DNA of 64,000 nucleotides from a virus (taxonomy: Duplodnaviria > Heunggongvirae > Uroviricota > Caudoviricetes). A model generated the notes under the pieces. The model was given only the letters and a program-made list of their open reading frames with translations, made no database searches and was not told the origin of the DNA. How positions within the stretch are numbered: the first letter of the stretch is position 1; the number at the start of each line of letters is the position of its first letter. The translations under genes were made by a program, and so were the position numbers. This document shows, in pieces, positions 17,046 to 54,523 of this stretch. Where the stretch lies: IMG/VR virus record IMGVR_UViG_3300009008_000004, positions 18,004 to 82,003 of that record. The stretch is one strand, 5' to 3'.

Positions 17046-17570
17046 ATGCCAAAAGAATACACGGCGCTCCTCCAGATACCGGAGCCTTTACACACATGCC
17101 CCAATTGTGGGGCCCACCCCTTCGAGAGCTTCATGCGCGGATCAGTCCAACGCGCAAAGAGGAGTTGGTTTACCCCCTGGAAGGAGAGACCTTACTGCTC
17201 GATTATCTGCGATATGTGCAAGGAAATAGTGGGGCATGAGTACCCCTTTCTGGGGGAGATAGAGCTAGAAAAGCCCTACCGATATAACAGGGATGTCATC
17301 GCTCCTAAGTACACCTGCGAGGGAGCGCAGCAGAACGTGCTGGCCAGCCTGCAGCAAATAGAGGAGCAGGTAGATGCGCTCGCGGAGTTTATTATGCCCA
17401 AAGAACCCAAAGTAACCGAGTTCCCGGAAAGTGAGGAGCTCGAACAATTTCTGCGAGGAGAAGAAGAGCCTCCCCCGCCGAAACCACCCAAGAAGAAGTC
17501 GAACGTGAAGAGAAGGACCCGTAAGTCCCGCCGGTGGGAACAGATCCTCAAGAAACCACAAGAGGACTAA
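17046..17570 (+). CDS. Zn-ribbon protein with Lys/Arg-rich C-terminus
   Basis: CPNCGAHP...CDMCKE; C-terminal PPPKPPKKKSNVKRRTRKSRR. Confidence 0.5.
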   Translation: MPKEYTALLQIPEPLHTCPNCGAHPFESFMRGSVQRAKRSWFTPWKERPYCSIICDMCKEIVGHEYPFLGEIELEKPYRYNRDVIAPKYTCEGAQQNVLASLQQIEEQVDALAEFIMPKEPKVTEFPESEELEQFLRGEEEPPPPKPPKKKSNVKRRTRKSRRWEQILKKPQED

Positions 17571-17585
17571 TCGCATCCGATACCG

Positions 17586-17593
17586 GGTATAAG
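17586..17593 (+). promoter_or_regulatory. GGTATAAG box
   Basis: 32 nt upstream of ATG 17618. Confidence 0.4.
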
Positions 17594-17617
17594 ACCTCCG
17601 TACGAAGGGAGTTACAT

Positions 17618-19381
17618 ATGGCACTGAAAGACGAGCAATTCATCCAACAGCTGGTCGTCCAGCTGGTAGGACAACAAGCCGAGGAGGGCAAGACAGGAAT
17701 GCACGATGCTGAAAGATGGGAGCAGCTGAACCATGCTCTGCAGGAAGCCAAGGACATCATTACCCAACAAGACGAGATGCTCCGCGAGATGAACGAGCCG
17801 CCTAACTCGTTTGGGACCATCCTCTCAATCGAAGAGCCCGAGCCACCCACGGTGGAAAACCTTCTTCGGAAGAAGGGCCGAGTCAAAGAAGGACGGCCGC
17901 ACGAAGGCCGGGGCATCTTGGTCAAGGATGCCTGGGAAGTCACAGACGAAGAGGGAAAGGCCACAGGAGTTTTCCGCATCTACGCCCAGTTCACCGAGAC
18001 CCCAACGCAGCACCAGAACTACGACCTCGACGATGTCCTCCTCATTGGGGGCGCTGGTGGGACAGTTATCCTCCATACCGGCGAGAAGATCCTGCGTGTA
18101 CCCTTCCCCTATTGGTTGGAGGAAGGTGTCGGGGTGGGCGACGAAGTCCTGCTGAACGTTATGACCCTGGCAATCATCGGAAAGGCAGGAGATCCCATCG
18201 GTGCCGGCGAGATCGGCAGCGTTCGGAATATCATCTCCGACCAACTCTGCGAAGTCGACTACGGTGGCACTACCAGAGTTGTGTTCCAGGGCAAGCATAC
18301 AGAAGAGATCAAGCTCGGGGACCGCGTCGTACTCAACCCCGGCGGAGTCGCTGTCTCCACCAACCTCGGGCGAGGGGAAGACCGGTGGAACCTCGAGACT
18401 GCCCAGGATATCACCTGGGGAGATATCGGTGGGCTCGAGAATGCAAAACGGATGATGCGGGAAGCTGTTGAGTACCCAATCCTCCACCAGGAAATCTATA
18501 CCCGCTACAACAAGAAACCCATCAAGGGTGTCCTTCTCTATGGCCCTCCAGGATGTGGGAAGACTATGCTTGGGAAAGCTGCTGCAACCGCAGTTGCTAA
18601 CCTGCACGGCGGGACGAAGGGTGGTTTCCTCTACATCAAGGGGCCTGAGCTGCTCAACAAGTGGGTTGGTGAGACGGAGGCACAGATTCGCTCCATCTTC
18701 GCAGTTGCCCGTCGGTATCACGAGGAGAATGGCATTCCGGCCCTCATCTTCATAGACGAGGCAGATGCGATCCTCTCCAAACGCGGGTCTGGGAGATCCT
18801 CCGACATGGAGAAGACCATGGTCCCGATGTTCTTGGCTGAGATGGATGGTCTCGACAAGTCGTCTGCACTTGTCGTACTCGCCACCAACAGGTCAGATAA
18901 GTTGGACTCTGCTGTGGTGCGGGATGGTCGTGTGGATCGTAAGATCAAGATTACCCGGCCCACCCCCGAGAGCACCGCGGAGATATTTGCGCTCAACCTT
19001 GTCGACCTTCCGTTTGCGAACGGTGAGGCTGTCGAAGACCTCGCGGAATTCGCGGCACAACAGCTGTTTGACCCCAAGCGAGTGCTGTACCAGATGCAGG
19101 CCAAATCGGGCAACATCCACGAAATTCGGATGGAGCATGCGATCAACGGCGGTATGATTGTGAGTGCTGTCGATCAGGCTACCTCACGGGCAATCGCTCG
19201 GGAGATGGAGGCCAAGAAGGAATCTGGGCTCGCCAAAGTAGACCTGGCTGCAGCAATCAATGATCTGTATCTCCAGAACGCCGATCTGGATCACCACGAA
19301 CTTCTCGTTGAGGTGGCAGACAACCTCGAAGAGGAGATCGCGTCCGTGCGTCCTATGATGCGCGGTAGGAGAGCTGCATGA
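17618..19381 (+). CDS. AAA+ ATPase, PAN/ARC (proteasome-associated ATPase)-like architecture
   Basis: N-terminal coiled coil, beta-rich middle, then classical AAA: GPPGCGKTM Walker A, ALIFIDEADAIL Walker B, second region of homology; RBS GAAGGGAG. Confidence 0.8.
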   Translation: MALKDEQFIQQLVVQLVGQQAEEGKTGMHDAERWEQLNHALQEAKDIITQQDEMLREMNEPPNSFGTILSIEEPEPPTVENLLRKKGRVKEGRPHEGRGILVKDAWEVTDEEGKATGVFRIYAQFTETPTQHQNYDLDDVLLIGGAGGTVILHTGEKILRVPFPYWLEEGVGVGDEVLLNVMTLAIIGKAGDPIGAGEIGSVRNIISDQLCEVDYGGTTRVVFQGKHTEEIKLGDRVVLNPGGVAVSTNLGRGEDRWNLETAQDITWGDIGGLENAKRMMREAVEYPILHQEIYTRYNKKPIKGVLLYGPPGCGKTMLGKAAATAVANLHGGTKGGFLYIKGPELLNKWVGETEAQIRSIFAVARRYHEENGIPALIFIDEADAILSKRGSGRSSDMEKTMVPMFLAEMDGLDKSSALVVLATNRSDKLDSAVVRDGRVDRKIKITRPTPESTAEIFALNLVDLPFANGEAVEDLAEFAAQQLFDPKRVLYQMQAKSGNIHEIRMEHAINGGMIVSAVDQATSRAIAREMEAKKESGLAKVDLAAAINDLYLQNADLDHHELLVEVADNLEEEIASVRPMMRGRRAA

Positions 19382-31079: not shown

Positions 31080-32942
31080 ATGCTCGCAATTCTTGTTTTG
31101 ATCACCATCGTAGTACTGTGCAGCATTGTCGTACTGTGGAAGTTCCGCTTCACCAAGAAGGAGTACACCGGGGAGACCACCATGGGTGGTTACGAGAAGT
31201 ACAAGACGGTGAAGCACCATCTGCCGCGCAAACTGCAGATCCTCGGAACTGCGCTTGCTATCATCCTATGGGCAGCAACATTTCTCGGAACGACTCTGTA
31301 CGTCGCACCGAAGACGGGGTACCTCGAGTACTCAAAGACATGGGGTGGTGGCTCCATGGGACCGGGGCAGATCGTTGCCTACGACGGAGAGAACGGCCCG
31401 CAAGCAGAAATTCTGCCGCCCGGACCCCACATCCTACCCCCGTGGCAATTCGAGGTCATCGAACGCTCCGACTTCGTAGTCCCTCCGGGCCAGATCGCAG
31501 AGCTGTCGACCAAGGACGGCGAACCACTATCCCCGGGTATGCGCTATGCACCTGAGTGGCAAGAGCTATCTGCCTTCCTCGATGCAGTAAACTTCCTCTC
31601 CTCTGGGAAAGGCTACAAAGGCGACCAAGTCACAATCCTCAAACCTGGTAACTGGAAGTTCAACCAGAACCTGTATGTCGCCGAACTCGCGAATGTTACC
31701 AACGTCCAGGTTGGGCACGTAGCAGTCGTCAAGGCAAACTACGGAGATGTCCCCACGCCGAAGACGATCAAGACCGCGAATATCATGGAAGTCGAGGTCC
31801 CGCTAACCAAGGAAGAGTTGGACATGGCCTACAAGGAGGCCATCGAGCTGGAGACCCAGCGGCAATTGGCTACAGGCATCCCCGCGGACCAGGTCAATGT
31901 AAAGCGGGAAGACGTAAAGGTCAAGAAGTCCAAAGTCATGCTCAAGGAAGTGGAGCAAGAAGTGGACGATCCCCTGGTAGACGTCGGCGAGCGTGGGATC
32001 TGGAGGAAGCCGCTGATCCCCGGAGAGTACTTCATGCACACGAAGGCGCATGAATTCAAGGATATTTTGACCATGAAGGTTCGCGTTGCCTACAGTCCTG
32101 AGGACAAGAAAGAACAGGACAACGTAGCGTTGGACCCAATCATCGTAAGGTCGAAAGATGGCTTTGAGTTCCCCGTCGACGTGCGCGTGGTCTACCATAT
32201 CGAACCCTCCGATGCACCTTGGGTGGTGGCAACCATCGGCGATGACGACTACGTGCTGGACAAAGTCATGACTCCTGCGGTTCGGTCAATCTTCCGAAAC
32301 CTCATGGGACGCTCGAAAGCACTCGACTTCGTAGCCGACCGCGAACTCAAGCAGCGGGAAGCAAAGTCACTGATTGCGAAAAAGTGCGCAGTGCACGGCG
32401 TCACTGTCGATGAAGTGCTGATCGGCCGGGTTGGTGATGATGCTACGCTGGGGGCGCTGATGAAAACGCAGAAGGACCGCGAGATTGCAGTCCAGCAGCA
32501 AGTGACCCTTGGGGTGCAGCAGAAGGCCGCTGAGCAGCAGAAAGAGCTCAGTAAGACCCAACAGGAGGCCGAGGAGGAAAAGTCCCTGGCAAAAGCCGCC
32601 TACGAGGTCCAGAGGGCACAACAGCGCAAGCTCCAGGCCCAAGAAGACGCGGATGCGGAGGCAATCAAGGTGAAGGTCGCAGCAGAGGCTGAAGCTGAGA
32701 AGATCCGAACGATCGCTCGCGCAGAAGCGGATGGCTACACAATGAAGGTCACCGCACTTGGGCGAGACACAGTCCGGACTATCGAGGCCCTGCGCATCGT
32801 TGGGGACGCCAATCTACGGATCACGCCAAACGTCATGGTATCTGGTGGAACCGAGGGAGTCGTCAGCGCACTCGCAGGAACACTCCTCAACAACTTCAAT
32901 GTCGCTGGGAAGGGCACAGGAATGCCCATACCCACCGAGTAG
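31080..32942 (+). CDS. SPFH/band-7 (flotillin-like) membrane protein
   Basis: N-terminal TM helices, SPFH-like core (FEFPVDVRVVYHIEP), long Ala/Glu/Gln-rich flotillin-type coiled coil. Confidence 0.65.
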   Translation: MLAILVLITIVVLCSIVVLWKFRFTKKEYTGETTMGGYEKYKTVKHHLPRKLQILGTALAIILWAATFLGTTLYVAPKTGYLEYSKTWGGGSMGPGQIVAYDGENGPQAEILPPGPHILPPWQFEVIERSDFVVPPGQIAELSTKDGEPLSPGMRYAPEWQELSAFLDAVNFLSSGKGYKGDQVTILKPGNWKFNQNLYVAELANVTNVQVGHVAVVKANYGDVPTPKTIKTANIMEVEVPLTKEELDMAYKEAIELETQRQLATGIPADQVNVKREDVKVKKSKVMLKEVEQEVDDPLVDVGERGIWRKPLIPGEYFMHTKAHEFKDILTMKVRVAYSPEDKKEQDNVALDPIIVRSKDGFEFPVDVRVVYHIEPSDAPWVVATIGDDDYVLDKVMTPAVRSIFRNLMGRSKALDFVADRELKQREAKSLIAKKCAVHGVTVDEVLIGRVGDDATLGALMKTQKDREIAVQQQVTLGVQQKAAEQQKELSKTQQEAEEEKSLAKAAYEVQRAQQRKLQAQEDADAEAIKVKVAAEAEAEKIRTIARAEADGYTMKVTALGRDTVRTIEALRIVGDANLRITPNVMVSGGTEGVVSALAGTLLNNFNVAGKGTGMPIPTE

Positions 32943-35818: not shown

Positions 35819-36753
35819 AAATCAAAGTAGAACCAACAATTTTCCTTCTGCCAGAAGTCATCACGAAGATCGACATCTGGTGTAAGAAGGCCAAAGGGGA
35901 GGTCTCTGGCCTCGGCCTCATCGACATCGATGAAGATGGGGACATCTTTGTAACTGATGTCTACCTACTTGAGCAAAAGTCATCCAGTGGTAATACGGAC
36001 CTCGACCAGGAGGCTGTTGGTAACCTGATGACCGAACTCAGAAAGGAAGGCATCTCAATGTCCAAGCTCCGCTTCTGGTGGCATTCACATGGGAATGGTG
36101 GAGTATTTTGGTCGGGAACCGATGACAAGACCATCGATATTCTCGGCAAAGGCGGCTTTATGGTCTCCATGGTCACCAACAAGAAGCGGGAGAAGAAGTT
36201 CCGGATCGGGATGCAGAAACCGCTGAAACTGGACCTGGATGACGTTGGGTGGAGCCTCGCCTACTTCCCAGACGAAGAGTTTGAGAAGGAGTGCGAAAAG
36301 GAATTCGATGAGAAGGTCAAGGAGGTCACGACGATCACTACCTTCAAGGGTTCCGGAAACTACGGGCACAACCGCTCCGGCCGGGGCCGCTTCTACCATA
36401 ATGGGCGGTGGCACGACTCCTGGCCCGGTGGCAATGGGGGTTCCCGGACCGATTCTCCAGGAGGTGGGCTTCATCAGCCCGTCCCTTTTCAGGGAGAGGA
36501 CACAAGCCCCGGGACAAACAACCCACTCGAAATGCTCCCGTCGTGGGGAGAAATCCCCGGGACCGACGCAAGAAGTAGAGTCAGCGATCTCGTTGGTCAA
36601 GAGATTGAAGAGGTCGATACTCTCTGGCTTATTCTCAACGAAGCGGACTACACGGTAGCCGGGCTTGACCAACTCCGTAAGGCTAACAAGATCGAAACTG
36701 CGGAGCACAACCAAGCACGCGCCCAACTGAAGGAGCTCGGACTCGATGACTGA
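35815..36753 (+). CDS. JAB/MPN (JAMM) metallopeptidase
   Basis: E...WWHSHGNGGVFWSGTD = HxHx7Sx2D JAMM motif; ATGA coupling to E2-like gene. Confidence 0.8.
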   Translation: MKIKVEPTIFLLPEVITKIDIWCKKAKGEVSGLGLIDIDEDGDIFVTDVYLLEQKSSSGNTDLDQEAVGNLMTELRKEGISMSKLRFWWHSHGNGGVFWSGTDDKTIDILGKGGFMVSMVTNKKREKKFRIGMQKPLKLDLDDVGWSLAYFPDEEFEKECEKEFDEKVKEVTTITTFKGSGNYGHNRSGRGRFYHNGRWHDSWPGGNGGSRTDSPGGGLHQPVPFQGEDTSPGTNNPLEMLPSWGEIPGTDARSRVSDLVGQEIEEVDTLWLILNEADYTVAGLDQLRKANKIETAEHNQARAQLKELGLDD

Positions 36754-37411
36754 TATCGACAGGAATGCTATGTATCATCGGCAGCTCGATATCCTCGATC
36801 CGGAGAAGGCTGCCAAACTCAACGTCACTATTATCGGGGCCGGCGCTATCGGCTCCTTCACCGCACTCTCCCTGGCAAAGATCGGCGTAACCAACATCAC
36901 GGTCTACGACGATGACACGGTAGAGCTGCACAACATCCCGAACCAGTGGTACAGACTATCGGATGTCGGGAAGAAGAAGGTCATTGCCCTCCGCGAGATT
37001 ATCGAGCAGTTTACCGGGGTCAAGATTACCGCGATCCCGGAAAAGTTCGATAAGCAGAAGGCAAAAGGATTCGTCATCAGCGGAGTCGACTCCATGGATG
37101 CTCGCATTGGCATCTGGCAGAACCTCAAGATGCAGTTTCCACAGAGGTATCTGGATGCCCGCATGGGAGCGGAGGTGGGGGAGATACACATGGTGAACCC
37201 GGCCGACTTCGACAACGCCGAACAGTACGAGGAGAAGCACCTATTTCCCTCAACTGAGGCTGCTCCAGGAGCATGTACTGCCCGCAGCACAATGTACTGC
37301 GCCAGCGGGCTCGCTGCGATCATTGCGGCAAAGGTCAGCAACTTCATCAACCAGAGGCCCGACTCGGACCTGATCGTGGACTTCCGAAATATGAAGGTGT
37401 TGCCTGTTTGA
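36746..37411 (+). CDS. E1-like ThiF/MoeB-family adenylyltransferase
   Basis: VTIIGAGAIGS nucleotide-binding loop, YDDDTVELHNIPNQ E1 signature, 8-nt overlap with JAB gene. Confidence 0.8.
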   Translation: MTDIDRNAMYHRQLDILDPEKAAKLNVTIIGAGAIGSFTALSLAKIGVTNITVYDDDTVELHNIPNQWYRLSDVGKKKVIALREIIEQFTGVKITAIPEKFDKQKAKGFVISGVDSMDARIGIWQNLKMQFPQRYLDARMGAEVGEIHMVNPADFDNAEQYEEKHLFPSTEAAPGACTARSTMYCASGLAAIIAAKVSNFINQRPDSDLIVDFRNMKVLPV

Positions 37412-38954: not shown

Positions 38955-40295
38955 ATGAAACCGACCCGTCTTTGGTCGACATGGAGTGTCTCGAAATTGG
39001 TGCGGGTCCTGGACTGCCCACGATCCTTTGACCTTGTCTACATCAGACAGACGAAGGGTCCCGAAAGCCCGTACAAGGTTTTCGGCTCGGCGGTCCACAC
39101 CATGCTCGAGAGATTCTTCAAAGTGAACTACCAAACAGCTGAGTCCTTCGCCAAGGCGGGCGTCGGTTTCTGGATGGGGGTCGTAGACGGAAGTCACGGC
39201 CCCTCTTCTTTTAGTGCCGAGGTAAGCAAACCAGTCATTATTGACTTCAGTAACGTGAAGGCACCAATGATGTTCCTGGGCATGATGAAGAAGATACTGC
39301 GGATCTTCTACAACGATAATTTGGAGTATAGAGATGGTCCAAAACCTACGCCAGAGGTGGAAAAAAATTTCACGCTTGATCTGGAAGGCAAAAAGATTCG
39401 AGGTATCCTGGATCGACTCCAGCCCGACCATCCGGATCTTGCCTGGAACCGGCGAGACGGGGAGCTCGGCACACGGGTGGGCCACCATATCATCGACTAC
39501 AAGCCATACGTACTCGACCAGTTCGGGCTCCACCTTGACCTGCAACTCACCATGTACAATCTGTGGTACATCCAGCAGTACGGCAGAGACCCCCTCTCAC
39601 TTGGAATCTACAATTACAAAGAGCCCATCGACAGAGTTGTATGCACACCTCCCCGCACCCAGAAGGATTTCGCCGACCTCGCCCTCAAGTTTCAGGAGGC
39701 CTCAGAGTATGTCATTGGCGTGCTCACCGGCGACATGTCGAGGCCCTCCGCAATAACCGGGTTCCGGCATTTCATCCAAGATGACCTGATGACCGGGGTA
39801 ATGACGCCCAAGAAGGTAATGGGTGGTCCCGGGTGTAAGTTCTGTGAGTTCAAGGAGAATTGCCTGAAGATTCACAAAGGGGAGCTACCGACCACGCGGG
39901 AATACGTCAAGAAGAAGTACGAACTTCCAAGCTCCCCACTCCTCCCCTTCGCGGTAAAACATAAGGGAGCGGACCGACCGCGTACCCGCGCGAATCTGCG
40001 GAGAGTGCTTGCCCGCAGAAGGGTAGAGCCTCTGCCCACCAAACCGGAGGAGGTCTATCTCCGCCTACAACTGAAGGTGGATAGGACATCCGACAAAACC
40101 GACCCAACCAAGTATGGGCGCTGCCCCCACTGCGGGTTCGCCCTCCAGAAGAACGGGAAGTGTAACAACTGCCTCTCCTGGTATAGCAAGGATGGCAACT
40201 TCCTCCCCGAGAAATCATGGAAGTCCGTCTCCGACAGGATCAAAAGGAGGAAAGAAAAGGATGAGCAGGATGTGGGACCAGGTAATAGCGGATGA
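38955..40295 (+). CDS. PD-(D/E)xK nuclease, Cas4/RecB-like with Fe-S cysteines and C-terminal Zn ribbon
   Basis: N-terminal Cys (LDCPRSF), ...DRLQPD...IIDYKPY (D-x-K), GGPGCKFCEFKENC three-Cys cluster: Cas4-family arrangement; C-terminal CPHCG...CNNC. Confidence 0.6.
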   Translation: MKPTRLWSTWSVSKLVRVLDCPRSFDLVYIRQTKGPESPYKVFGSAVHTMLERFFKVNYQTAESFAKAGVGFWMGVVDGSHGPSSFSAEVSKPVIIDFSNVKAPMMFLGMMKKILRIFYNDNLEYRDGPKPTPEVEKNFTLDLEGKKIRGILDRLQPDHPDLAWNRRDGELGTRVGHHIIDYKPYVLDQFGLHLDLQLTMYNLWYIQQYGRDPLSLGIYNYKEPIDRVVCTPPRTQKDFADLALKFQEASEYVIGVLTGDMSRPSAITGFRHFIQDDLMTGVMTPKKVMGGPGCKFCEFKENCLKIHKGELPTTREYVKKKYELPSSPLLPFAVKHKGADRPRTRANLRRVLARRRVEPLPTKPEEVYLRLQLKVDRTSDKTDPTKYGRCPHCGFALQKNGKCNNCLSWYSKDGNFLPEKSWKSVSDRIKRRKEKDEQDVGPGNSG

Positions 40296-40926
40296 GTATA
40301 ACCTCCGCCAACAAGTAGCAGACCACACGAACAACACCCTTAACTCCGTCTGTAAGGAATGCGATTCCCCCGTCTGCTGTATGCAGATGTTTGAGGTTAC
40401 CCCGTGGGATGCGCTCCTTATCATCAGGACACATCCGCAAGCGGTAACTCGGCTTATACCCAAGCTGGAAGAGCAGGCTGAACTGGAGAAGAAGTACGCC
40501 GGCGAGATGGAGGAGTACATCCATAACGAACGGCATCCCTGCGCCTTTCTCACTGCCGACGGCAAATGCGAAATATACGCCATGCGCCCCATCATTTGCG
40601 CTATGATGCATATTCGCGAAGGAGAGAAGCGCTGCGGAGACATGGACGCCAAAGAGAAGCATGCAGTTGGGCTCCTCCCGGAGCTCACTGTACGATACCT
40701 CTCCACAACACACAAAGTGTGGGAAGGTGTAGACGGACAACAGGGAATGCGGCACTTCCTACTGGAGAACGGGATGGAGGATATACCTTTTGGATTTATC
40801 CCGGGCCTTGCCACAGCCATACTCGCTGTCGGCGAAGGCAAGAAACCTCCTATGTTCTCCGAGCGGGACATGCTCATGACCGAACTTCGTATGCGGCAAA
40901 AGGGGTACATGAAAGACGCCCCATGA
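40261..40926 (+). CDS. YkgJ-family Zn/Fe-chelating domain protein (second copy)
   Basis: CKECDSPVCC...CAFLTADGKCEIYAMRPIIC. Confidence 0.55.
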   Translation: MSRMWDQVIADEYNLRQQVADHTNNTLNSVCKECDSPVCCMQMFEVTPWDALLIIRTHPQAVTRLIPKLEEQAELEKKYAGEMEEYIHNERHPCAFLTADGKCEIYAMRPIICAMMHIREGEKRCGDMDAKEKHAVGLLPELTVRYLSTTHKVWEGVDGQQGMRHFLLENGMEDIPFGFIPGLATAILAVGEGKKPPMFSERDMLMTELRMRQKGYMKDAP

Positions 40927-42796: not shown

Positions 42797-43090
42797 ATGC
42801 AACAGTTGCTTCCTCAAATCCGGCAGTTTGCCGCAGACAGGACAAGGGAGGCTGCGAGCGCTCTAAATGCTCTTGGCCGTGTCGTCAAAGTTCTCCAGGT
42901 GCTCGACTCCGAATACCAGGAGACGTACCAAACCCTTACGGTACGAGTCGATTCCGGGAAGTACGAGGGGCAAGTCCTGCCCGTCGTACAGATCCAGCTG
43001 GATGGTAAAGGGGTTACCATTTGGGCTACCCACAACGAAAACCCCAAGAAATTTCGCGTCACAGGCGAATTGGAGGTCACACAAGCATGA
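42797..43090 (+). CDS. hypothetical protein
   Basis: ATG 8 nt after GGAGG; 97 aa. Confidence 0.5.
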   Translation: MQQLLPQIRQFAADRTREAASALNALGRVVKVLQVLDSEYQETYQTLTVRVDSGKYEGQVLPVVQIQLDGKGVTIWATHNENPKKFRVTGELEVTQA

Positions 43091-44016
43091 GCAAGAAAAC
43101 CGTACACCTGGTCCTGGAGGATATCCGGTTGGATTCCGATGGTATGTCCAATTGCCGATCGGCTATGGAGGGTATCGAGGAGCTGGCACAGGACATCGTA
43201 GATGAGGGATGCCTGCTCAACCCCATTGGGGTATGGCAGCCCCCGGGAAAGGACTACTACGTCTTGAACTATGGCTACCGTAGGCTCCATGCGCTGAAGT
43301 GGCTCAAAGAACACCGACCCAAAGATTTCATCTCCCTTGACTTTGAGGAGGCTGGGAAGATCCCATGTGCCGCATACGGTGGGGATTTGAACGCCGCATT
43401 GATCAGGAACCTCTCTGAGAACCTGAAGCGGAAGCGGGTAAACCCGGCAGATCTGGTTACCCGGGTCGGGTACCTGCACGAAGTCCGGGGGATGACGGAG
43501 ACACTAATCGCGAAGACCATTGGGATTGCCCAGTCCCAAGTCTCAGGTATGCTGGGAGTCCACCTTGGGTGCTCCAAGGCAGTTATTGGTGCCCTCCGGC
43601 AGAAGCTCATCAACCTGTCCAACGCCAAGAAGTTCAGCAAGCTCCCACACGAGCAGCAGGATGAATTGCTGGAGAAGCTGCTTGAGCAGGACCCTGAGCA
43701 GGCAAAGAAGATCAAGAAGCTTTTGGCCAAGAAGACCGAGGCCTCCGTGCGTCCGGGTGTAAAGACTCTGAAGTCTACTCTTGGGCAGGTAGCTGCACGT
43801 AAGGAAGAGCGGGACAAGGAGTACCGCGATGGAGTCATTGCCGGCCTCAAGTTTGCATTGGGTATCATTGATAAGGTCGAATGGCTGTTTGCTCCGGCAC
43901 ACGCAGTTCCGGAAGATGCAGCTCCTCAGGCCCCGACGAGACTCGTTCGTGCGATGAAACCGAAGAAGAAGTTCGCTGGGAAAGCGCAAGAAAAGGAGAC
44001 CACCAAACCAAAGTGA
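43087..44016 (+). CDS. ParB/Sulfiredoxin-fold (ParB N-terminal domain) protein
   Basis: NPIGVWQ...YYVLNYGYRRLHALKWL = ParB GxxRxxA box; HTH-like middle; Lys-rich C-terminus; ATGA overlap. Confidence 0.6.
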   Translation: MSKKTVHLVLEDIRLDSDGMSNCRSAMEGIEELAQDIVDEGCLLNPIGVWQPPGKDYYVLNYGYRRLHALKWLKEHRPKDFISLDFEEAGKIPCAAYGGDLNAALIRNLSENLKRKRVNPADLVTRVGYLHEVRGMTETLIAKTIGIAQSQVSGMLGVHLGCSKAVIGALRQKLINLSNAKKFSKLPHEQQDELLEKLLEQDPEQAKKIKKLLAKKTEASVRPGVKTLKSTLGQVAARKEERDKEYRDGVIAGLKFALGIIDKVEWLFAPAHAVPEDAAPQAPTRLVRAMKPKKKFAGKAQEKETTKPK

Positions 44017-44031
44017 GGTGTTGATTAGACA

Positions 44032-45639
44032 ATGTCCAAGCTAGAAACCCTGATCCGGGCTGCGTACCCGGTGATCTACGTTGAGACCCCCGAAGAGGAG
44101 CGGTTGTTCCATGAACTTTCACGGATCACCACCGAAACGGGGCTGGATTTATTCACTTGGGATATTTCCGCTGGCTTCCGCCAGTATAAGGACGACGAGT
44201 TCAAGGACATCGATCCTGAAGCGGTAGAGCCACGCGAGGCTATCCCGCAGTATTTCATCAACAAAGATGACGTGAATGGGATTCTGGTACTCCCCGACAT
44301 CCACCGCCTGTTCCATGATGCCGCCTGCCTACGCTTGCTGCGCAACGCGCTCCAGCTGCGGCACCAGGGTGGCATCAAGATCATCTTGATGTGCTCCCCT
44401 ATCATTGACCTTCCCCTGGAGCTCCGCCGGCAGGTAGCTACTGTCGACTTCCCCCTCCCCTCCCGGGAGGAAATCAAGGAATTCCTCGAGGAGCAGCGCA
44501 ACGACGTCCCCAAGACCCTCTTCCCTGTGAAGAAGGAGATGGCGGAGGTGGTTGATAGCTGCCGTGGGCTGACGATGATGGAGATTGAGAATGTTCTGGC
44601 CAACTGCCTGGTCGAGGATTCTCCTCTGAAACCCAGCCGGGTTATCGGGGAGAAGAAAGAGATTCTCCGTGGGGCCAAGTCCCTGGAGTACATCGAATCT
44701 CCCTTGGAACTGAACAAGGATGTCGGGGGTCTCGAGAACGTGATTGCCTGGCTCGAGCTTCGCAAGCGTGCCTTCTCTGAGGATGCTGTGAAGTTCGGGA
44801 TTCCTGCGCCCAAAGGCTTGCTCCTGGTGGGTTTGCCTGGAACAGGGAAAAGCTTGGTCGCCAAAGCAGTTGGTGGTTCTTGGAAGTTCCCTCTGATCCG
44901 CTTCAATATGGGCGCTGCCTTCTCGAAGTGGCAGGGGGAATCCGAGGCGGAGATCCGGAATGCCTGGAACACCGCAGAGGCCTGCGCACCATGCCTCTTG
45001 GTAGTGGATGAAATTGATAAAGCGACCGGCGGTCTGGGCGGCGACTCAGACAATGGGACCGGGAACCGAATTCTTGGAGACCTGCTGACGAAGATGCAGG
45101 AGAACACCAAGGGCGTGGTCGTTATTGCTACCTGTAATGACGTACAGGCGATGCACCCAGCATTGCTTCGTAAAGGCCGCTTTGACGAGATTATCTTCGT
45201 GGACTTGCCCGGCCCCAAGGCCATCGAGCAGATCCTCGATATCCACTTGACGGCAAAGAAGCAGCCAACGTTGGATTCGTTCACCAAGAAAGAACGGAAA
45301 AGCATCGTCGAGCACATGCAGGGCATGACCGGCGCGGAGATTGAGCAGGCAGTTGTAGATGCCATGTACCTGGCATTTGCTGCTGAGCGGGCCCTCCTTC
45401 CTGAGGACCTCGTAGCTGCCGCTACTAACACCCGACCGTATTGCGTCCTGAAAGAGGAGGAAGTCAAATGGATGCGGAAGTGGGCAGAAAACAGGGCGGT
45501 GCCAGCATCCGCCGAAGTCTTGGACTTGACGAAAGCCCTGGACTTTCGCAAGCGCTTGGGCCAAGAACTCCCAGCGGATTCACCAATGTCTACGGTAAAG
45601 AAGCTGCGGCTAAAACGTCCCTCGCGCTCTGGCTCGTAG
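44032..45639 (+). CDS. AAA+ ATPase (classical AAA clade) with N-terminal domain
   Basis: LLLVGLPGTGKSLVAKAV Walker A, CLLVVDEIDKA Walker B, ATCNDVQAMHPALLRKGRFDEII sensor/Arg-finger region. Confidence 0.8.
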   Translation: MSKLETLIRAAYPVIYVETPEEERLFHELSRITTETGLDLFTWDISAGFRQYKDDEFKDIDPEAVEPREAIPQYFINKDDVNGILVLPDIHRLFHDAACLRLLRNALQLRHQGGIKIILMCSPIIDLPLELRRQVATVDFPLPSREEIKEFLEEQRNDVPKTLFPVKKEMAEVVDSCRGLTMMEIENVLANCLVEDSPLKPSRVIGEKKEILRGAKSLEYIESPLELNKDVGGLENVIAWLELRKRAFSEDAVKFGIPAPKGLLLVGLPGTGKSLVAKAVGGSWKFPLIRFNMGAAFSKWQGESEAEIRNAWNTAEACAPCLLVVDEIDKATGGLGGDSDNGTGNRILGDLLTKMQENTKGVVVIATCNDVQAMHPALLRKGRFDEIIFVDLPGPKAIEQILDIHLTAKKQPTLDSFTKKERKSIVEHMQGMTGAEIEQAVVDAMYLAFAAERALLPEDLVAAATNTRPYCVLKEEEVKWMRKWAENRAVPASAEVLDLTKALDFRKRLGQELPADSPMSTVKKLRLKRPSRSGS

Positions 45640-46355
45640 GTATCGCTCAGAATACGCGGCCCACTTACTGGCTGCCTTTTGAGCCCTTACCCGAAAGAGA
45701 CTACATCTCCTCTCTGCAGGTGGACCTGTCAAAGCTCCTCCTCGCAGAAGACGTACGTACCATGGATGACGTGGGGTACCTCCTTGCTGGACTTCCCAGG
45801 GAGGCGCTCCTCGTGATCGATTCCATGGATACTATGCCGATCGGGGCTGGACGACGACTAACTACTGAAAAGCAAGGGGTGAGTTCCGCACTACAGGAAC
45901 TCGCCGCCTTTGCTCCCTTGCTACAATCAAGGCAGATCAGCGTTATCCTGATCTCCCAAATACGGTATAGGCCGGCAACTGGACTACAATCCAGCGCAGG
46001 TGCAATGGAGGGTGCACTTACTGCTGCACTAAACCTCCGAGTACTCAGCCGAGAAACCAAATACGGGGAGCGTACGTGGACCCAGATAGCGGTAGAGAAC
46101 ACACGGCATACGTTGAACCCCCCGGGAAGGGAATGCATACTCTACATGCACCCGTCTCTCGGAATATCGCCCGAACGAGAACTGGTAGAGGAGTTGAAGA
46201 AACGGTACGGTACTAAGTGGAGGTCGGAGCTCACCGGGCGTACAGGTGTTCGACTTCCCAATGGTCTTGTTGCTGCGGCTCAAGCGATCCGCGACAACCC
46301 GGAAACCGCAGAGAAGCTATGGAGGTTACTGTGGCAAAGAAGAAAATCGAAGTAA
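45468..46355 (+). CDS. RecA-like recombinase homolog with degenerate P-loop
   Basis: SLGLDESPG...ALG, YGKEAAAKTS (cf. RecA YGPESSGKTT), LLVIDSMDTM (cf. VVDSVAAL), ILISQIR (cf. IFINQIR), AIRDNPETAEKLWRLL (cf. [20 protein letters not shown]); N-terminus overlaps AAA gene. Confidence 0.5.
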   Translation: MDAEVGRKQGGASIRRSLGLDESPGLSQALGPRTPSGFTNVYGKEAAAKTSLALWLVGIAQNTRPTYWLPFEPLPERDYISSLQVDLSKLLLAEDVRTMDDVGYLLAGLPREALLVIDSMDTMPIGAGRRLTTEKQGVSSALQELAAFAPLLQSRQISVILISQIRYRPATGLQSSAGAMEGALTAALNLRVLSRETKYGERTWTQIAVENTRHTLNPPGRECILYMHPSLGISPERELVEELKKRYGTKWRSELTGRTGVRLPNGLVAAAQAIRDNPETAEKLWRLLWQRRKSK

Positions 46356-46543
46356 CAATCAACCCTGACGGGACTGTCGAGGGGGAGGCCATGGGCCATG
46401 AAGGGGATGGCTGCATGGATGCCCTGCGGGGGATTACCTCCGGAATGAAACGATTGCGGACAAAGCGAAAGCCCGAGTTCTTCAGAACCTGCAAGGTCAG
46501 CGCCCCCGCACTGCGGTATGGTGGTAAGGAGACCAAGCATTAA
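46319..46543 (+). CDS. small hypothetical protein
   Basis: ATG with GGAGG-containing context; basic. Confidence 0.3.
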   Translation: MEVTVAKKKIEVTINPDGTVEGEAMGHEGDGCMDALRGITSGMKRLRTKRKPEFFRTCKVSAPALRYGGKETKH

Positions 46544-46554
46544 GGAGGTCCCAT

Positions 46555-47163
46555 ATGCGCCACAACGCACCGATGCTCCATATAGAGGGCATTGTGTACC
46601 CAACGCAGGCGAACGGCCCAGGAAAGCGCATCCTTGTTGCTGTCCGTGGGTGTTCTCTGCAATGCCCCGGGTGTGTAAACAAACATCTATGGGATCGTAC
46701 CCTCGGCGGAAGATACGTAGACCCAGCGAAGTTCGTGGATGAGTTGCTGAAGACAACGGGACTCTCTCGGGAGGATGCCACTAATGTCGGGCTTACAATC
46801 TCCGGGGCAGAGCCACTAGACCAAGCAGCCGCTCTCTTCATCCTACTTGTCCAAGCAGCCCTGACCTTCAGGGATATCATCGTCTTCTCCGGTTACACCA
46901 TCGAGGAGATCGAGGAAGACGCTCTGAAGAGCTCTTGCCTGGCATGGCTGGACGCAATTATCACAAATAGATATTTGCGGGAGCAGCACGCTACACAGGG
47001 CCTCAAAGGGTCTGCCAATCAGGAAATCATCGTCAACCCCTACCGGAACAAGCTCACTCTGCAAGAGTTGGAGGATTTCGAGCATGTAGTTGAGATCCAC
47101 CCAATCGGGGTGATAACCGGCTTCCCATCAAAGGAAGAGGAGGAAGCATGTCAGCATTCATAG
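46555..47163 (+). CDS. radical-SAM activating-enzyme-like protein (NrdG/QueE-like CxxxCxxC)
   Basis: YPTQANGPGKRILVAVRGCSLQCPGCVN: CxxxCxxC cluster in NrdG/QueE-type context; RBS AGGAGG. Confidence 0.55.
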   Translation: MRHNAPMLHIEGIVYPTQANGPGKRILVAVRGCSLQCPGCVNKHLWDRTLGGRYVDPAKFVDELLKTTGLSREDATNVGLTISGAEPLDQAAALFILLVQAALTFRDIIVFSGYTIEEIEEDALKSSCLAWLDAIITNRYLREQHATQGLKGSANQEIIVNPYRNKLTLQELEDFEHVVEIHPIGVITGFPSKEEEEACQHS

Positions 47164-47573
47164 TTTGCGATCCTGTGGAGCTCACCGAGGATCAGATACT
47201 CCAAACCCTCAAGCTCCTGGGCTATGAGACCATCGAACAGGGAAAAGATCTCCACCTGTATGGCTACCAGGGAGACAAGCGGAAAGAGACCGCGGATATT
47301 GTTGTGCGTCGAAAGTACATCGGCCACTCCAGCAATGACCTTGGCTTCAAGAAGGGTGCGGACGGGAAATACAAGATGATCGTTTCCGAGTACGATCAGC
47401 GTGCCCTCGTAACCAAGCACAACGGTAAGCGAGGAATGCGTTTCCAGCAACTCTTCACGCAAGCAGCCTCTACCTCGAAGGTAATCGAGAATGCTCGCCA
47501 GAAGAAACTCCGGGTCGAAATGCCACAGGAAGGTCTACGGTGGGGAGAACCGATTAAGCTCTCAATTGGCTAA
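47148..47573 (+). CDS. hypothetical protein
   Basis: 141-aa ORF; last + strand gene before strand switch. Confidence 0.45.
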   Translation: MSAFIVCDPVELTEDQILQTLKLLGYETIEQGKDLHLYGYQGDKRKETADIVVRRKYIGHSSNDLGFKKGADGKYKMIVSEYDQRALVTKHNGKRGMRFQQLFTQAASTSKVIENARQKKLRVEMPQEGLRWGEPIKLSIG

Positions 47574-50320: not shown

Positions 50321-53300
50321 CTACACTACCAGCGTCACGTTGATCTGGTTGGCCGGGTAGTACGGCGTCACCGAGATATCCACATACAGCGTATCCGGCT
50401 GCTGTGAGTCGATGTAGATGTTGGTGATCGTGATCTTCGATACGATTGTCCCAGTCATCCCACCGATTACAGAGCTAACCAAAATGCTCACGTAGTCAAG
50501 GAAATTCCTTGTCAGATTGAACTTCCCAGCCAACCCCTGCATAGAGACCCGGAGCCGCTTCGTGATGTAGTCCAGCACATGGGTGATGGACGCTTCCCTG
50601 GTTTGCAGGGAGGTGACATCGGTAGTCAGCTGATGCCGAGTTTCAACTGCGGAGTAGCTGTCCTGCTGGATCAACCACCAAACACCGCCGCCGGCCGCGG
50701 TATCCATGTCGGAAGCTGACAGGAGATCCCAGGAGCCAGAGACACTCTCAATACCCGCAAGAGTAAGTCCGGTAAAGGACTGCTGCGGGGCAGTCGAAGC
50801 GCACAACCCAGCAAGGGCTGCACAAGTGTACATCCCATGGATAGAGGTCGAGGACCCACTTTCCAGGTAGGTAGCAGACGAGGGCTGCACGTACCGAACA
50901 CGGCGGTATCCGTACGCCGTCGCCTTTGAAGCAAGAGCAGCTGCGAGCTGCGCACGCCCCGTCGAGGTTGTGGTATCGATGGAGGCCTGCCTGACATAGA
51001 GAGTAACTGTCTCGCCATCAGCATCCCAAGCCGGGCTGTCTCCACCGGCCTCAACCATAGTAGTTGCGTAGAAGTTATCATCGTTACCGGTGGTCCCCGG
51101 GCCGGAGCCTGCGGAGAAACCGGTGATGCGGCACTTCAACACGTTGCCGGCCTTAATCTCAGACACGGAGTACTTGAACGGATCGTCCGTACGAGTGATG
51201 TAAAGGCCGTTTTCAATGGTAACTGCTCCCGAAATAGGGACAGTCGCACCATTTGCGTCGGTCTTGCCAGCCAGCACAGCAGCAATATTGAAACCGGTGG
51301 CCGCATCGATTGTGACCTCAAAAGAGGTACCAGCAATCTTGTTGAACGGAGCCGTGGTATTCGGTGCCGAGCCACAAGTAGTCGGGGTGCGCTCTGTAGG
51401 TGAATCTTCACAAACGAAGCACACACGCTCGCTCTTTCCGGTAGTCGGGTCTGCCATCGCAGTTACGTGGGCATCAAGCAGCTCATGGACTGCAGGGCTA
51501 TCCGACATCGGAGCAATGGCGTAAACATCGGCAGACTGCAGGAAGTCGAAGGCCTTGGCGTAGGCGCTCGTGGTTCCATAAGCCATCAAAGTCGAGGTTT
51601 CTTCGACACCAAATGCCTTCACCTGGATATTCGGTGCGTTCAGCATCGCAAGGTACACACCGAGGGCCAGCGGGTTCGAAGAATTGACGGGACCAATTGC
51701 AGTCTCCATCTCAGCGTAGGTCGAGTAAATCTGCACAGCCGGGCTTGCACCCGCGGCAGTTATGTCGGTACGCAGGGCAGTGTATCCAGCAGCCAGCTGC
51801 GCAGTGCTGCTCTGGTACTCAACACCACCACCATCTCGGTTAAGCCCGCCCTTCAGGTAGATCAGTTGGTTGGTAGTATCAAACCAGACCTCAGACCGCG
51901 GCTTATCAGAAGTAGTGTTACCCTGGTACTGCCCATCGGTAGCCGCACCAGTAATACCTTGAGAGGAGATGTACCAGGTGCCAAGAGCAGTACCTACTGT
52001 GGCGTTTTGCTCTGTCAGGTCGAGGTATGCGTTGGTCAGTGTCTGAGCGCCAACTATGCCGTCGTTCCAGGTATAGTTAGCGAAGGCAGAGATTGTTCCA
52101 ACGTAACTTCCGGCGTTATACAACTTATCACCGACCTGCACGCGCAGGGGGTCCCCGCGGAAGATCTTACCGGTGAAGTCTGTTGTAGACGTGGTGTACG
52201 GCCCACGGAACAGCATGTTCGCGGCATCTCCACCGAACTCAATTCCCGCATCGTAACCGGCGTAGTTACCGCACATGGTTGCGTCCAAGGTACACTTCAA
52301 AACTTTTTGGCCCGTAGTGAGCAAACGGTAGTCTACCGTATAGGGCCCAGCACCAAGAGAAGCAGCCAAGGTAATCGTCCCAGTCGCTGGGTTGATCCCA
52401 GATACCGTTGAGATAGTTCCCCCCAACGTACCGGATCCTCGGGGAACTGTGTCCCCGGTAATCTGCGCAAGAATAGTCGCCCCACCAACCCGAGCAGCCT
52501 CAACATACGTTAGAGCCGCGACATCGGCCGAAGCGTCTACGAGGGAAGTTGTAGTTAGCGTAGCTGATGTACTGCCATACATCTCTGTAGCATATGGAAT
52601 ATCGGCAGCAGCTTCGGCTGTGAACGGGGAACCGCCGGTCACCAACGCATTAAGGGCTGCAAGCAATCCCGCCTCATTCGTCATGTCAGCCGCATCAAGC
52701 GTATCCGACGTAACCGGTCCCCCATTCACCCTAACAGTAATTGTCTTATTGATCAGGGGTGAGGACGCGCCGTAGAATGACGCCGCGGTGAGCGGGCATT
52801 CCCCAAGTACCGTGGGGTAGGTTTGAGTTGCGCTTGTCGCGGCGTAGTTATATGGATCCGCCCCAAAGTTTAGGCCGTAGATCTTGCCGCTCAAGTCATC
52901 AGAAAGTAAAGCAGATGTAGAACCGTCCAAGTAGCTAATGTTAGTGCTCCCGACAGTCGTGTTAGGTCCAAGAAACGGCTCAATGGTCGCATTCGCCTTC
53001 ATGGCAGTATCAAGGGCGGCCGCCTTGCAGATGTCGGGAACAGCTACTGTCCAAGCCGCGCCACCTGCCCCGCAAACCGCTGGGCAGTATTCAATTTCAA
53101 TTTCTACCGGGAAGGCCGCCCCAGCTACGGGATTCTTTACATTCGGGAGAATATAAGACCCGGGCGATACCGTAAATCCTACGTCAGCCGCGACGCTCGA
53201 GATAATCGTAACGGCCCCACCGGTAAGGGTAGTCAGAGTAAAGACGGGACCAGCGCCTGTAAGGATATACCAACCATTATAGGCTTCGCCCGGGCCCGAC

Positions 53301-54523
53301 CCAGCTTCGAGGTACACGTATGCACCGGTAGCAACCGTACCGGCTGCAACGCCAAGAACACTGGTGAACTGGTCAGGCGCTGTTACATTGCCGTCGGCCA
53401 AAATTCCGTGGCCTGCCCCATCAACATCAGTTTCAGTAAATTTGACCGCAATTTGATTACCGAAAGCTCCTACACCAACACCGGGAGTTACACTCTGGTC
53501 AGTGATGAACTTTTGGAATCCATGGGCCTCAAAATGGTACGCAGCAGTAGTAGTTACACCATCCGCCGACAATTGAATGTCTGTGTACGCGTGCCGGCCT
53601 GTTTGCAGGAGACGACTTGAGGTAGAACCTGTCCCAACTGGCCACAACAATTGGTTGTTTGGGAGTGCATCCAAATCCCACTCGTTACCTGTCAATTGAG
53701 TATCAAGCCAAAGCTCTTTTCCGCCGGGAACAGCGGTACCACCGCCAATGGGCTGCACATGTCCTTCGCGACCAAAGAACCGTTTACCACCCTGGTAGTT
53801 GATGGATTCCTGGTTTGCTGCGTAAGTGCCGGCACCCGCACCGTTATCATATGTAACGCCGACACGGTTATATCGGTTACGGTTGATGGCACTTTCATCA
53901 CTCAAGGTAACAATCGATCCACCCCAGATCCGCGCGACATTGATATTGGTCTCGTCGAAGGTGAGGTAGTCGATAATCCCCCGAGAATCGGGAAGAGACT
54001 TGTACGGGAAAACCATCGGGTTATTCTCGTAGTCACCACTTCCGTAGTACCGAATATCCTCAAAGCCGTTAAACCCGAGAATGGTATGCGCAGAGGTTGC
54101 CCCACCCGAGCGGAACATCAAGCTCGAGCTGTCTCCAGTAGAGACGGTCCGTACACGGATGGTGGTTCCAAAGTAGTCCCAATAGAGATACCCAGAAAAG
54201 GCCTCATTGAGCTTAGAACAGACCGTAGCAATCGGAAGAGTACCCACCGTAGTGAAGGTATACTCACGGTTCGTCCCGTCAACCTCGACATAAATGCTTT
54301 TTGCCGAAGCGCTGATCGCGTAAGTCGCGGTACCACCACCAGAGATGATGGGCGGGAGCGACAGCAGCGCACTGCTGTTCACCGAGCCGTCAGAACTCTG
54401 CATTTCGATGATCTGGTAACAAGGCCCGACAATACATGCCGGGAAGGTAGGACTGTAGATAGTCGGGGTGACAGTCTGCAGTACCTGCTGAATCGTCAAT
54501 CCGGGCTGAGGAATAGAAGCCAT
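50321..54523 (-). CDS. large (1400 aa) Thr/Gly/Ala/Ser-rich structural protein, putative tail fibre/host-recognition protein
   Basis: single 4.2-kb ORF, beta-rich low-charge composition, not helical like a tape measure. Confidence 0.65.
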   Translation of the reverse strand: MASIPQPGLTIQQVLQTVTPTIYSPTFPACIVGPCYQIIEMQSSDGSVNSSALLSLPPIISGGGTATYAISASAKSIYVEVDGTNREYTFTTVGTLPIATVCSKLNEAFSGYLYWDYFGTTIRVRTVSTGDSSSLMFRSGGATSAHTILGFNGFEDIRYYGSGDYENNPMVFPYKSLPDSRGIIDYLTFDETNINVARIWGGSIVTLSDESAINRNRYNRVGVTYDNGAGAGTYAANQESINYQGGKRFFGREGHVQPIGGGTAVPGGKELWLDTQLTGNEWDLDALPNNQLLWPVGTGSTSSRLLQTGRHAYTDIQLSADGVTTTAAYHFEAHGFQKFITDQSVTPGVGVGAFGNQIAVKFTETDVDGAGHGILADGNVTAPDQFTSVLGVAAGTVATGAYVYLEAGSGPGEAYNGWYILTGAGPVFTLTTLTGGAVTIISSVAADVGFTVSPGSYILPNVKNPVAGAAFPVEIEIEYCPAVCGAGGAAWTVAVPDICKAAALDTAMKANATIEPFLGPNTTVGSTNISYLDGSTSALLSDDLSGKIYGLNFGADPYNYAATSATQTYPTVLGECPLTAASFYGASSPLINKTITVRVNGGPVTSDTLDAADMTNEAGLLAALNALVTGGSPFTAEAAADIPYATEMYGSTSATLTTTSLVDASADVAALTYVEAARVGGATILAQITGDTVPRGSGTLGGTISTVSGINPATGTITLAASLGAGPYTVDYRLLTTGQKVLKCTLDATMCGNYAGYDAGIEFGGDAANMLFRGPYTTSTTDFTGKIFRGDPLRVQVGDKLYNAGSYVGTISAFANYTWNDGIVGAQTLTNAYLDLTEQNATVGTALGTWYISSQGITGAATDGQYQGNTTSDKPRSEVWFDTTNQLIYLKGGLNRDGGGVEYQSSTAQLAAGYTALRTDITAAGASPAVQIYSTYAEMETAIGPVNSSNPLALGVYLAMLNAPNIQVKAFGVEETSTLMAYGTTSAYAKAFDFLQSADVYAIAPMSDSPAVHELLDAHVTAMADPTTGKSERVCFVCEDSPTERTPTTCGSAPNTTAPFNKIAGTSFEVTIDAATGFNIAAVLAGKTDANGATVPISGAVTIENGLYITRTDDPFKYSVSEIKAGNVLKCRITGFSAGSGPGTTGNDDNFYATTMVEAGGDSPAWDADGETVTLYVRQASIDTTTSTGRAQLAAALASKATAYGYRRVRYVQPSSATYLESGSSTSIHGMYTCAALAGLCASTAPQQSFTGLTLAGIESVSGSWDLLSASDMDTAAGGGVWWLIQQDSYSAVETRHQLTTDVTSLQTREASITHVLDYITKRLRVSMQGLAGKFNLTRNFLDYVSILVSSVIGGMTGTIVSKITITNIYIDSQQPDTLYVDISVTPYYPANQINVTLVV

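Follow-up and report, generated by a model that had tools for sequence, protein, structure and literature searches.

A divergent RecA homologue predicted to begin inside an AAA+ ATPase gene of a large tailed phage

Background

Do two ATPase genes of a tailed phage share coding sequence in different frames, or does their apparent overlap conceal a frameshift, a sequencing error or a misplaced start codon? The question is raised by a 64,000-nucleotide (nt) stretch of viral DNA (positions 18,004 to 82,003 of IMG/VR record IMGVR_UViG_3300009008_000004; Caudoviricetes), referred to below in its full length as the window, which belongs to a large tailed phage. On its plus strand, an open reading frame (ORF) at 45441-46355, encoding 304 amino acids (aa) from a TTG codon, is overlapped in another frame by the ORF of an AAA+ ATPase at 44032-45639. 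A preliminary description, made from the sequence without database searches, took the first of these for a RecA-like protein with a degenerate Walker A motif, suspected an ATPase-impaired accessory paralogue, and offered a long out-of-frame overlap, a programmed frameshift or a sequencing indel as explanations of the shared region. We consider it very likely that the two genes genuinely overlap, that a RecA-derived protein of 295 aa is made from the ATG at 45468 and that the overlap is a derived state; an accessory function for the protein we favour at roughly even confidence.

Results and discussion

A divergent member of the RecA family

The product of ORF 45441-46355 is a true but very divergent RecA homologue. 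The landmarks on which its recognition had first relied (SLGLD...ALG, YGKEAAAKTS, LLVIDSMDTM, ILISQIR and AIRDNPETAEKLWRLL) are all found in the frame, and the family membership that they suggested is borne out by profile and structure comparison alike. Comparison of a two-sequence profile with 1.84 billion representative proteins returned 53 matches, comprising five family members, two intermediates and a remainder that included bona fide RecAs; the latter were reached at E values of 1e-5 to 1e-7 and aligned from query position ~20-36 to ~290, and five of the RecA matches were confirmed with Pfam at 1e-71 to 1e-92. A profile built from seven family sequences matched E. coli RecA chains in the PDB at E~4e-13, with profile positions 25-281 corresponding to RecA residues 51-325, and matched M. 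tuberculosis and other PDB RecA chains at E~1e-13. With the same profile RadB (2cvf) gave an E value of 0.0086, against ~1e-13 for RecA.

An AlphaFold model based on an alignment of 54 sequences has a mean predicted local distance difference test score (pLDDT) of 90.9 and a predicted template modelling score (pTM) of 0.89; AlphaFold2 applied to two sequences alone gave a pLDDT of 44, which is unusable. Residues 1-15 of the model are disordered, the fold begins at about residue 19 and helices occupy residues 235-294. In a Foldseek comparison with the PDB, the top 50 matches were all RecA (E~1e-17, template modelling score ~0.72), and among viral structures the best matches, 333-476 aa long, were RecAs or RecA-like recombinases of phages. 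The region at 46152-46352 (+), which contains these C-terminal helices, is homologous to the RecA C-terminal domain: the profile alignment reaches RecA residue 325, and the C-terminal NPET motif aligns with its RecA counterpart.

At the level of single sequences the relationship is faint. The protein is ~20% identical to RecA, RecA is the best Pfam family for five of the seven family members, always below threshold, and the PHROG matches are phrog_97 (UvsX-like, E 0.004) and one weak match to phrog_8337, below threshold. We nonetheless judge the homology to be far beyond chance, because the profile and structure evidence is decisive despite these weak single-sequence scores.

Start codon and layout of the overlap

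A TAA stop bounds the RecA-like frame upstream, and from 45429, where the frame becomes open, only three in-frame start codons precede the P-loop, TTG 45441, ATG 45468 and GTG 45480, the next being GTG 45720. ATG 45468, rather than TTG 45441, appears to be the best placed. A Shine-Dalgarno (SD)-like sequence, GAGGAGGA (45454-45461, +), has its AGGAGG 7 nt before this ATG and, read in the AAA+ frame, supplies Glu-Glu-Glu codons. The ATG itself is composed of the final A of a Lys codon and the TG of a Trp codon belonging to a C-terminal motif of the AAA+ protein, KEEEVKWMRKWAENRAVPAS, and this Trp codon is kept in the closest relatives. From this best-supported start the gene would span 45468-46355 (+) and encode 295 aa plus the stop, comprising the RecA core and C-terminal domain without the N-terminal polymerisation domain.

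The resulting out-of-frame overlap covers 172 nt (45468-45639, +), the RecA-like frame being the AAA+ frame shifted by -1. RecA-like codons 1-57 lie inside the 3' end of the AAA+ gene and encode a disordered leader of ~17 residues, the first helix, strand beta-1 and the entire P-loop. The leader, encoded by the first ~17 codons after ATG 45468, does not resemble RecA and its disorder is a prediction. The preliminary description had traced RecA similarity back to the first in-frame stop. It does enter the AAA+ gene, and a hidden Markov model (HMM) built from the RecA matches alone confirmed homology upstream of 45640 by aligning to the window gene from nt 45534; the similarity is, however, demonstrable only from ~45519-45549, some ~90-120 nt in.

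Conservation of the overlap

A word-indexed search yielded only two homologues, and scans of viral contigs for close relatives, using the two-sequence alignment and the AAA+ protein, found nothing. An exhaustive profile search combined with two collection scans extended the family to nine lineages with 34-59% identity: the window; L001; L014/L016; L005-7/L019; L008-10/L015; L011; L012; L013; and L017. They derive from JGI, ENA, Logan and IMG/VR assemblies and are represented by phage contigs of roughly 90-183 kb, including contigs of 174, 181 and 183 kb.

In all nine lineages the RecA-like frame extends into the AAA+ gene, with an overlap of 142-178 nt, and in all nine the start codon, an ATG (GTG in L017), is built on a Trp codon of the AAA+ motif, at either of two NNA-TGG sites. 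A purine-rich SD-like sequence shifts with the start codon across the lineages. The first of the three explanations proposed at the outset, a genuine long out-of-frame overlap, is thus the one upheld: the arrangement is kept in nine lineages, both frames are selected (see below), and an internal SD sequence and start are conserved. As far as sequence comparison can tell, the overlap is real, conserved and selected in both frames, and we infer that translation of the RecA-like protein starts independently, at a ribosome-binding site internal to the AAA+ gene.

The geometry of the frames had invited a different reading, in which ribosomes, by programmed -1 frameshifting late in the AAA+ gene, would make an AAA+-RecA fusion, the RecA-like frame having no initiation of its own. 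The RecA-like frame is exactly -1 of the AAA+ frame, and homology of the AAA+ family (phrog_8638 match, aa 1-495) stops at ~nt 45517, at the motif KEEEVKWMRKWAENRAVPAS, with RecA similarity beginning at ~45519-45549. Programmed -1 frameshift pairs are known from the phage tail assembly chaperones G/GT and from dnaX, in which the downstream -1 frame likewise opens shortly before the upstream stop. What the present locus has instead of the hallmarks of such pairs is a conserved internal SD sequence and start codon. An X XXY YYZ heptamer is absent from the permissive zone of the window and none is conserved, L001 and L012 carrying single unrelated instances; RNA structure in 45418-45537 is neither conserved nor unusually stable (consensus -1.0 kcal/mol, z = +0.42); the longest of the 53 homologues has 478 aa, and no fused form occurs among them; and the two genes are separate in the outgroups. 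With slippery heptamer, conserved structure and fused homologues all missing, we regard a programmed frameshift as highly improbable.

Still less credible is a sequencing or assembly indel within 45430-45640 that would mimic an overlap between cleanly separated genes. The window comes from a metagenome contig, and metagenomic assemblies can carry indels; the same two-frame architecture, however, recurs in independent assemblies from all four sources and in all nine lineages, the window aligns with its closest relative through the overlap without a gap in either frame, and no homopolymer of 5 or more is present in the overlap of the window. Such an artefact can be set aside with near certainty.

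Selection on both frames

Chance openness of the second frame is a poor description of the overlap. Within the non-overlapping part of the RecA-like genes, the frame equivalent to that of AAA+ contains 0.053 stops per codon and stays open for 15 codons on average; in the AAA+ genes outside the overlap, 0.050 stops per codon occur in the frame equivalent to that of RecA. Inside the overlap, both frames remain open over 46-59 codons in nine of nine lineages, with P~0.04-0.09 per lineage and frame, values that are not fully independent because the lineages are related.

Substitution patterns offer a second view. RecA-frame third positions coincide with AAA+-frame second positions in the overlap and show a pairwise divergence of 0.23-0.49 over codons 1-48, as compared with saturated third positions outside it (mean 0.69, range 0.55-0.78; 221 windows). 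Codons 1-16 display an AAA+-type pattern in which RecA first positions, that is, AAA+ third positions, are the most variable, so that it is the AAA+ motif that dictates the RecA-like leader of ~17 residues. A zone of dual purifying selection follows at 45516-45611 (+), about codons 17-48, where all three codon positions are constrained. From about codon 43 onward the divergence pattern is that of an ordinary RecA-type coding sequence.

The nucleotide-binding site

The P-loop, GKEAAAKT (45594-45617, +), occupies residues 43-50 counted from ATG 45468 and places Ala48 (GCT, 45609-45611) at the position of RecA Gly71. The Walker A pattern GxxxxGK[ST], which the window departs from, is intact in six of the nine lineages: GKEAAGKT in L001, GQEAAGKT in L014, GPPGSGKT in L005, GQESAGKT in L008, GRESSGKT in L012 and GHEGVGKT in L017. 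Besides the window, with Ala for Gly, the exceptions are L013 (GEPSTYKT, Tyr for Gly) and L011 (GGPFGKT, aligned as G-GPFGKT, one residue short). Since the two closest relatives carry Gly, Ala48 is best viewed as a recent change specific to the window's lineage. PMC5240526, citing Konola et al. 1994, gives G66, G71, K72 and T73 as the conserved P-loop positions in RecA, and because the Gly71 position is conserved there, some effect of Ala48 on the ATP site is likely.

The remainder of the site is preserved. Glu72 (45681-45683, +) corresponds to the catalytic Glu96 of RecA and is invariant in the family; the Walker B strand LLVIDSMDTM (45807-45836, +) includes Asp118 (45819-45821), equivalent to RecA Asp144 and likewise invariant; and the SQIR motif (45954-45965, +) supplies Gln164, equivalent to RecA Gln194, ahead of an L2 loop that is 4-5 residues shorter than in RecA. 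Across seven aligned lineages, which include the three variant P-loops, K49, T50, E72, D118 and Ser-Q164-x-R166 (R166 being RecA R196) are invariant. That the Lys, Thr, Glu, Asp and Gln have been retained points to continuing selection on the nucleotide site. The earlier suggestion of an ATPase-impaired protein is therefore not established: given that these residues are invariant despite the change from Gly to Ala, the variant probably weakens the ATP site and need not abolish it.

The same residues help to decide where the protein begins. In five of the seven database entries (listed: P0001, P0002 and P0004-P0007), automated annotation places the start of the RecA-like gene beyond the stop codon of AAA+. 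The truncated versions lose the P-loop and in several cases also the catalytic Glu, and carry no Pfam annotation. For the window, the JGI gene caller chose GTG 45720, which gives a 211-aa product lacking both. If these calls were correct, the RecA-like protein would be a fragment without a P-loop and the similarity upstream of it an untranslated relic. This appears very unlikely. The product would miss strand beta-1, Walker A and the catalytic Glu72, when K49, T50 and E72 are invariant and the RecA codon pattern is already apparent inside the overlap from about codon 43; the frame is open for 48-59 codons in all lineages, whereas further upstream the same frame meets a stop every ~20 codons; and one entry, P0003, was called in its full-length form by one gene caller.

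Outside the nucleotide site the family departs from RecA more widely. RecA residues 1-33, an N-terminal helix and strand, mediate filament polymerisation. They are unmatched in the family: alignments begin at RecA ~45-51 and are preceded by ~17-22 residues predicted to be disordered. Aligned to the RecA HMM, the L1 and L2 regions each lack 4-5 residues, and L2 no longer has its Gly-Gly pair.

Polarity and origin of the overlap

Two outgroup proteins, P0009 (Pfam RecA 9e-24; locus L020) and P0008, are RecA-like and follow a gene of the same AAA+ family, the outgroup loci being L020/L021 and L022; a DUF2997 gene lies downstream at the P0009 locus (L020) and a short open frame after the P0008 gene. 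In both outgroups the AAA+ protein ends in a separate tail of 21-35 aa, and the RecA-like protein starts at the core (MRFSTGIPLLDMALGGG...), the two genes sharing a 4-nt ATGA overlap. As the same gene order thus occurs with a 4-nt overlap, the long overlap is derived within the window's clade. The outgroup proteins also start at the core without an N-terminal domain, and on this comparison loss of the RecA N-terminal domain is judged to be older than the long overlap.

A plausible course of events would be the collapse of a gene boundary with a 4-nt overlap in the window's clade, after which the AAA+ frame would have run on into the 5' region of the RecA-like gene and acquired a new basic tail. 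Purifying selection now acts on the initial two thirds of this tail. The last ~40 codons of the AAA+ gene do encode a basic tail, read across the RecA-like 5' region. AAA+ homologues of the cultured phages L338C, JP1 and SM1 carry basic tails of 30-40 aa after the PAS motif, so the overprinted tail appears to replace a tail of biased composition, one that was probably tolerant of change.

Possible function

What the protein does is a question on which sequence gives more hesitant guidance. An accessory role in phage DNA replication or recombination, for a nucleotide-binding protein that is not a canonical filament-forming strand-exchange enzyme, is the assignment we favour at roughly even confidence; it is suggested by a clade that lost the N-terminal polymerisation domain and shortened L1 and L2 and that kept the ATP-site residues. 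The accessory paralogue first proposed remains plausible in its role, but on grounds other than those given for it, namely the clade-wide absence of the polymerisation domain and the short L1 and L2 loops. The RecA-like protein would be co-expressed with the AAA+ ATPase and with the DUF2997, radical-SAM and DUF1257 genes that always follow, and it probably works with their products.

Two other assignments deserve consideration. A fully competent phage recombinase, forming nucleoprotein filaments and exchanging strands like RecA and UvsX, could be imagined from the RecA core and C-terminal domain with conserved ATP-site residues, from a PD-(D/E)XK exonuclease gene 5 kb upstream, and from the finding of no other RecA-like gene in the 64-kb window. 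We think it unlikely, as the polymerisation domain (RecA 1-33) is missing throughout the clade and its outgroups, L1 and L2 are each 4-5 residues shorter with the Gly-Gly of L2 replaced, and the window P-loop has Ala at a Gly71 position that is reported to be conserved (PMC5240526). Somewhat more attractive, and still a tentative proposal, is that the protein is not a recombinase at all and serves as a dedicated non-polymerising partner of an unfoldase-type AAA+ ATPase within the AAA+/DUF2997/DUF1257 module, the long overlap persisting because it sets the proportion in which the two ATPases are expressed. In one version the protein would serve the AAA+ ATPase as an adaptor gated by nucleotide, or be its client; in another it would cap host RecA filaments, for which the acceptor surface is kept and the donor N-terminal helix absent. 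Were filament capping true, the host SOS response or a RecA-triggered defence could be blunted.

Several points weigh against the reading that we prefer, that of two genuinely overlapping genes whose second product is a RecA-derived accessory protein, in addition to the relatedness of the lineages noted above. Curated RecA models are not reached by the single sequence, which scores 14.7 against a cut-off of 27 bits for Pfam PF00154 and 18.8 against a cut-off of 325.3 bits for TIGR02012 (NCBIfam). The alignment behind the structure model is rich in true RecAs and so biased toward the RecA fold; the sequence-profile results are independent of the model. L005 and L012 have weak SD sequences. Over the final ~10-15 AAA+ codons no separate selection is seen and the position of the stop varies among lineages, so that some of the overlap may amount to a tail of tolerated read-through and not to functional dual coding. 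Translation of both frames within the overlap we infer from conservation only. In cultured phages possessing the AAA+/DUF1257/DUF2997 trio (for example, L338C and SM1), the slot after the AAA+ gene is filled by an unrelated protein of ~200 aa, and the role may accordingly be linked with the module and not with recombination.

Relation to known systems

Compared with bacterial RecA (PF00154 and PF21096, TIGR02012) and phage RecA, the family is homologous over the core and C-terminal domain (RecA ~51-325) and shares the Walker A Lys and Thr, the equivalents of Glu96, Asp144 and Gln194-x-Arg196, and the NPET motif. It differs in scoring below curated thresholds, in lacking the N-terminal polymerisation helix, in its short L1 and L2, in the Ala that the window has for Gly71, in its length (295 aa, against 330-480 aa for phage RecAs) and in the fixed location of its gene between AAA+ and DUF2997 genes. 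In the manner of Sak4 and archaeal RadB, core-only relatives of RecA (PMC5928155, PMC2896510), the present protein is short, has the RecA fold without the N-terminal domain, is encoded by a phage, and plausibly acts in an accessory or annealing capacity, not as a classical recombinase. The window family, however, retains the C-terminal domain of bacterial RecA and is much closer to RecA than to RadB, and the RecA-like protein has no match to Sak4 in PHROG.

As in other overprinted viral genes (PMC8227390, PMC6195259), two frames are both constrained and the younger segment is a basic tail of biased composition. Unlike those cases, the present overlap resides in a double-stranded DNA (dsDNA) phage of ~180 kb whose genome is under no evident constraint on size; in the older frame, the stretch that overlaps encodes a RecA homologue's catalytic P-loop; and the polarity follows directly from outgroups with a 4-nt overlap. 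The family is a new, rare subfamily of a known superfamily, and the overlap a well-documented, polarity-resolved instance of overprinting rather than a categorically new system. It provides a clean example from a large dsDNA phage, in which a RecA P-loop, an ancient catalytic motif, is shared with a newly extended tail and dual selection can be measured. It also exposes a systematic annotation error, in that most database entries cut off the P-loop and catalytic Glu and are left as domain-less orphans. Finally, a RecA subfamily devoid of the polymerisation domain and always linked to AAA+, DUF2997 and DUF1257 genes offers a handle on the function of a module found in phages and cyanobacteria.

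The AAA+ gene and the conserved module

The AAA+ gene (44032-45639, +) encodes a 535-aa ATPase of the classic clade (Pfam AAA 7e-32; phrog_8638 1e-109) that is CDC48/FtsH/PAN-like in NCBIfam. Where contigs are long enough, the order of genes is ParB-like, AAA+, RecA-like, DUF2997, NrdG-like radical-SAM and DUF1257. The ParB-like gene lies at 43021-44016 (+), as the upstream member of this conserved module; in the relative L014 (434-3157), ParB-like and AAA+ sequences occupy one stop-free frame of 907 codons, either a fusion or merely an open frame. The DUF2997 gene (46319-46543, +; Pfam DUF2997 5.8e-6) shares its first 37 nt with the 3' end of the RecA-like gene, and the corresponding overlap in L001, L005, L008, L011, L012 and L013 amounts to 4-34 nt. 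It is followed by an NrdG-like radical-SAM activase gene (46555-47163, +; Fer4_12 1.7e-22; TIGR02491 3.9e-21, below cut-off), which in the window's clade always stands between DUF2997 and DUF1257 and for which no glycyl-radical partner was identified nearby. The DUF1257-like gene (47148-47573, +) is assigned by position: counterparts in relatives match DUF1257, and the window copy has no direct Pfam match. The tight packing from AAA+ to DUF1257 suggests translational coupling.

AAA+, DUF1257 and DUF2997 form a widespread phage module in which the position behind the AAA+ gene is variably occupied. In Rhizobium phage L338C (L002) and Pseudomonas phage SM1 (L004), the AAA+ gene is followed by that for an unrelated protein of ~200 aa and then by DUF1257 and DUF2997. 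The post-AAA+ proteins of ~200-240 aa from Rhizobium phage L338C, Agrobacterium phage JP1 and Pseudomonas phage SM1 were considered as cryptic RecA-like relatives and rejected, with no HMM match and hhalign probabilities of at most 2%. In cyanobacteria, DUF2997 and DUF1257 are clustered with the ferredoxin Fed7 (PMC4284462); a literature search on the DUF1257/DUF2997 module returned nothing beyond this gene-cluster listing.

Phage context

Other genes of the window give an impression of the phage that carries this locus. An ORF of 1400 aa at 50321-54523 (-), unusually long for a sheath, matches tail sheath over its last ~200 residues (phrog_279, 1e-12), and relatives carry a 1372-aa counterpart. 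No transfer RNAs were found in the window. A PD-(D/E)XK exonuclease gene (38955-40295, +) is followed by a gene for a CxxCxxCC-domain protein (40114-40926, +). This pair was examined as a second long overlap (182 nt) and dismissed, the likely start being ATG 40261, with a good SD sequence, AAAGGAGGA, which reduces the overlap to 35 nt.

A second AAA+ protein, of 615 aa (17534-19381, +), strongly resembles Mpa/ARC (TIGR03689, E 9.6e-94, 315 bits, below the equivalog cut-off), the actinobacterial proteasome ATPase, and a ThiF/E1-like protein is encoded ~17 kb downstream of it (36746-37411, +). Together, these two genes may belong to phage-borne Pup- or ubiquitin-like machinery. The window also encodes, at 31080-32942 (+), a 620-aa SPFH/Band-7 protein (2.5e-11), of a kind uncommon in phages.

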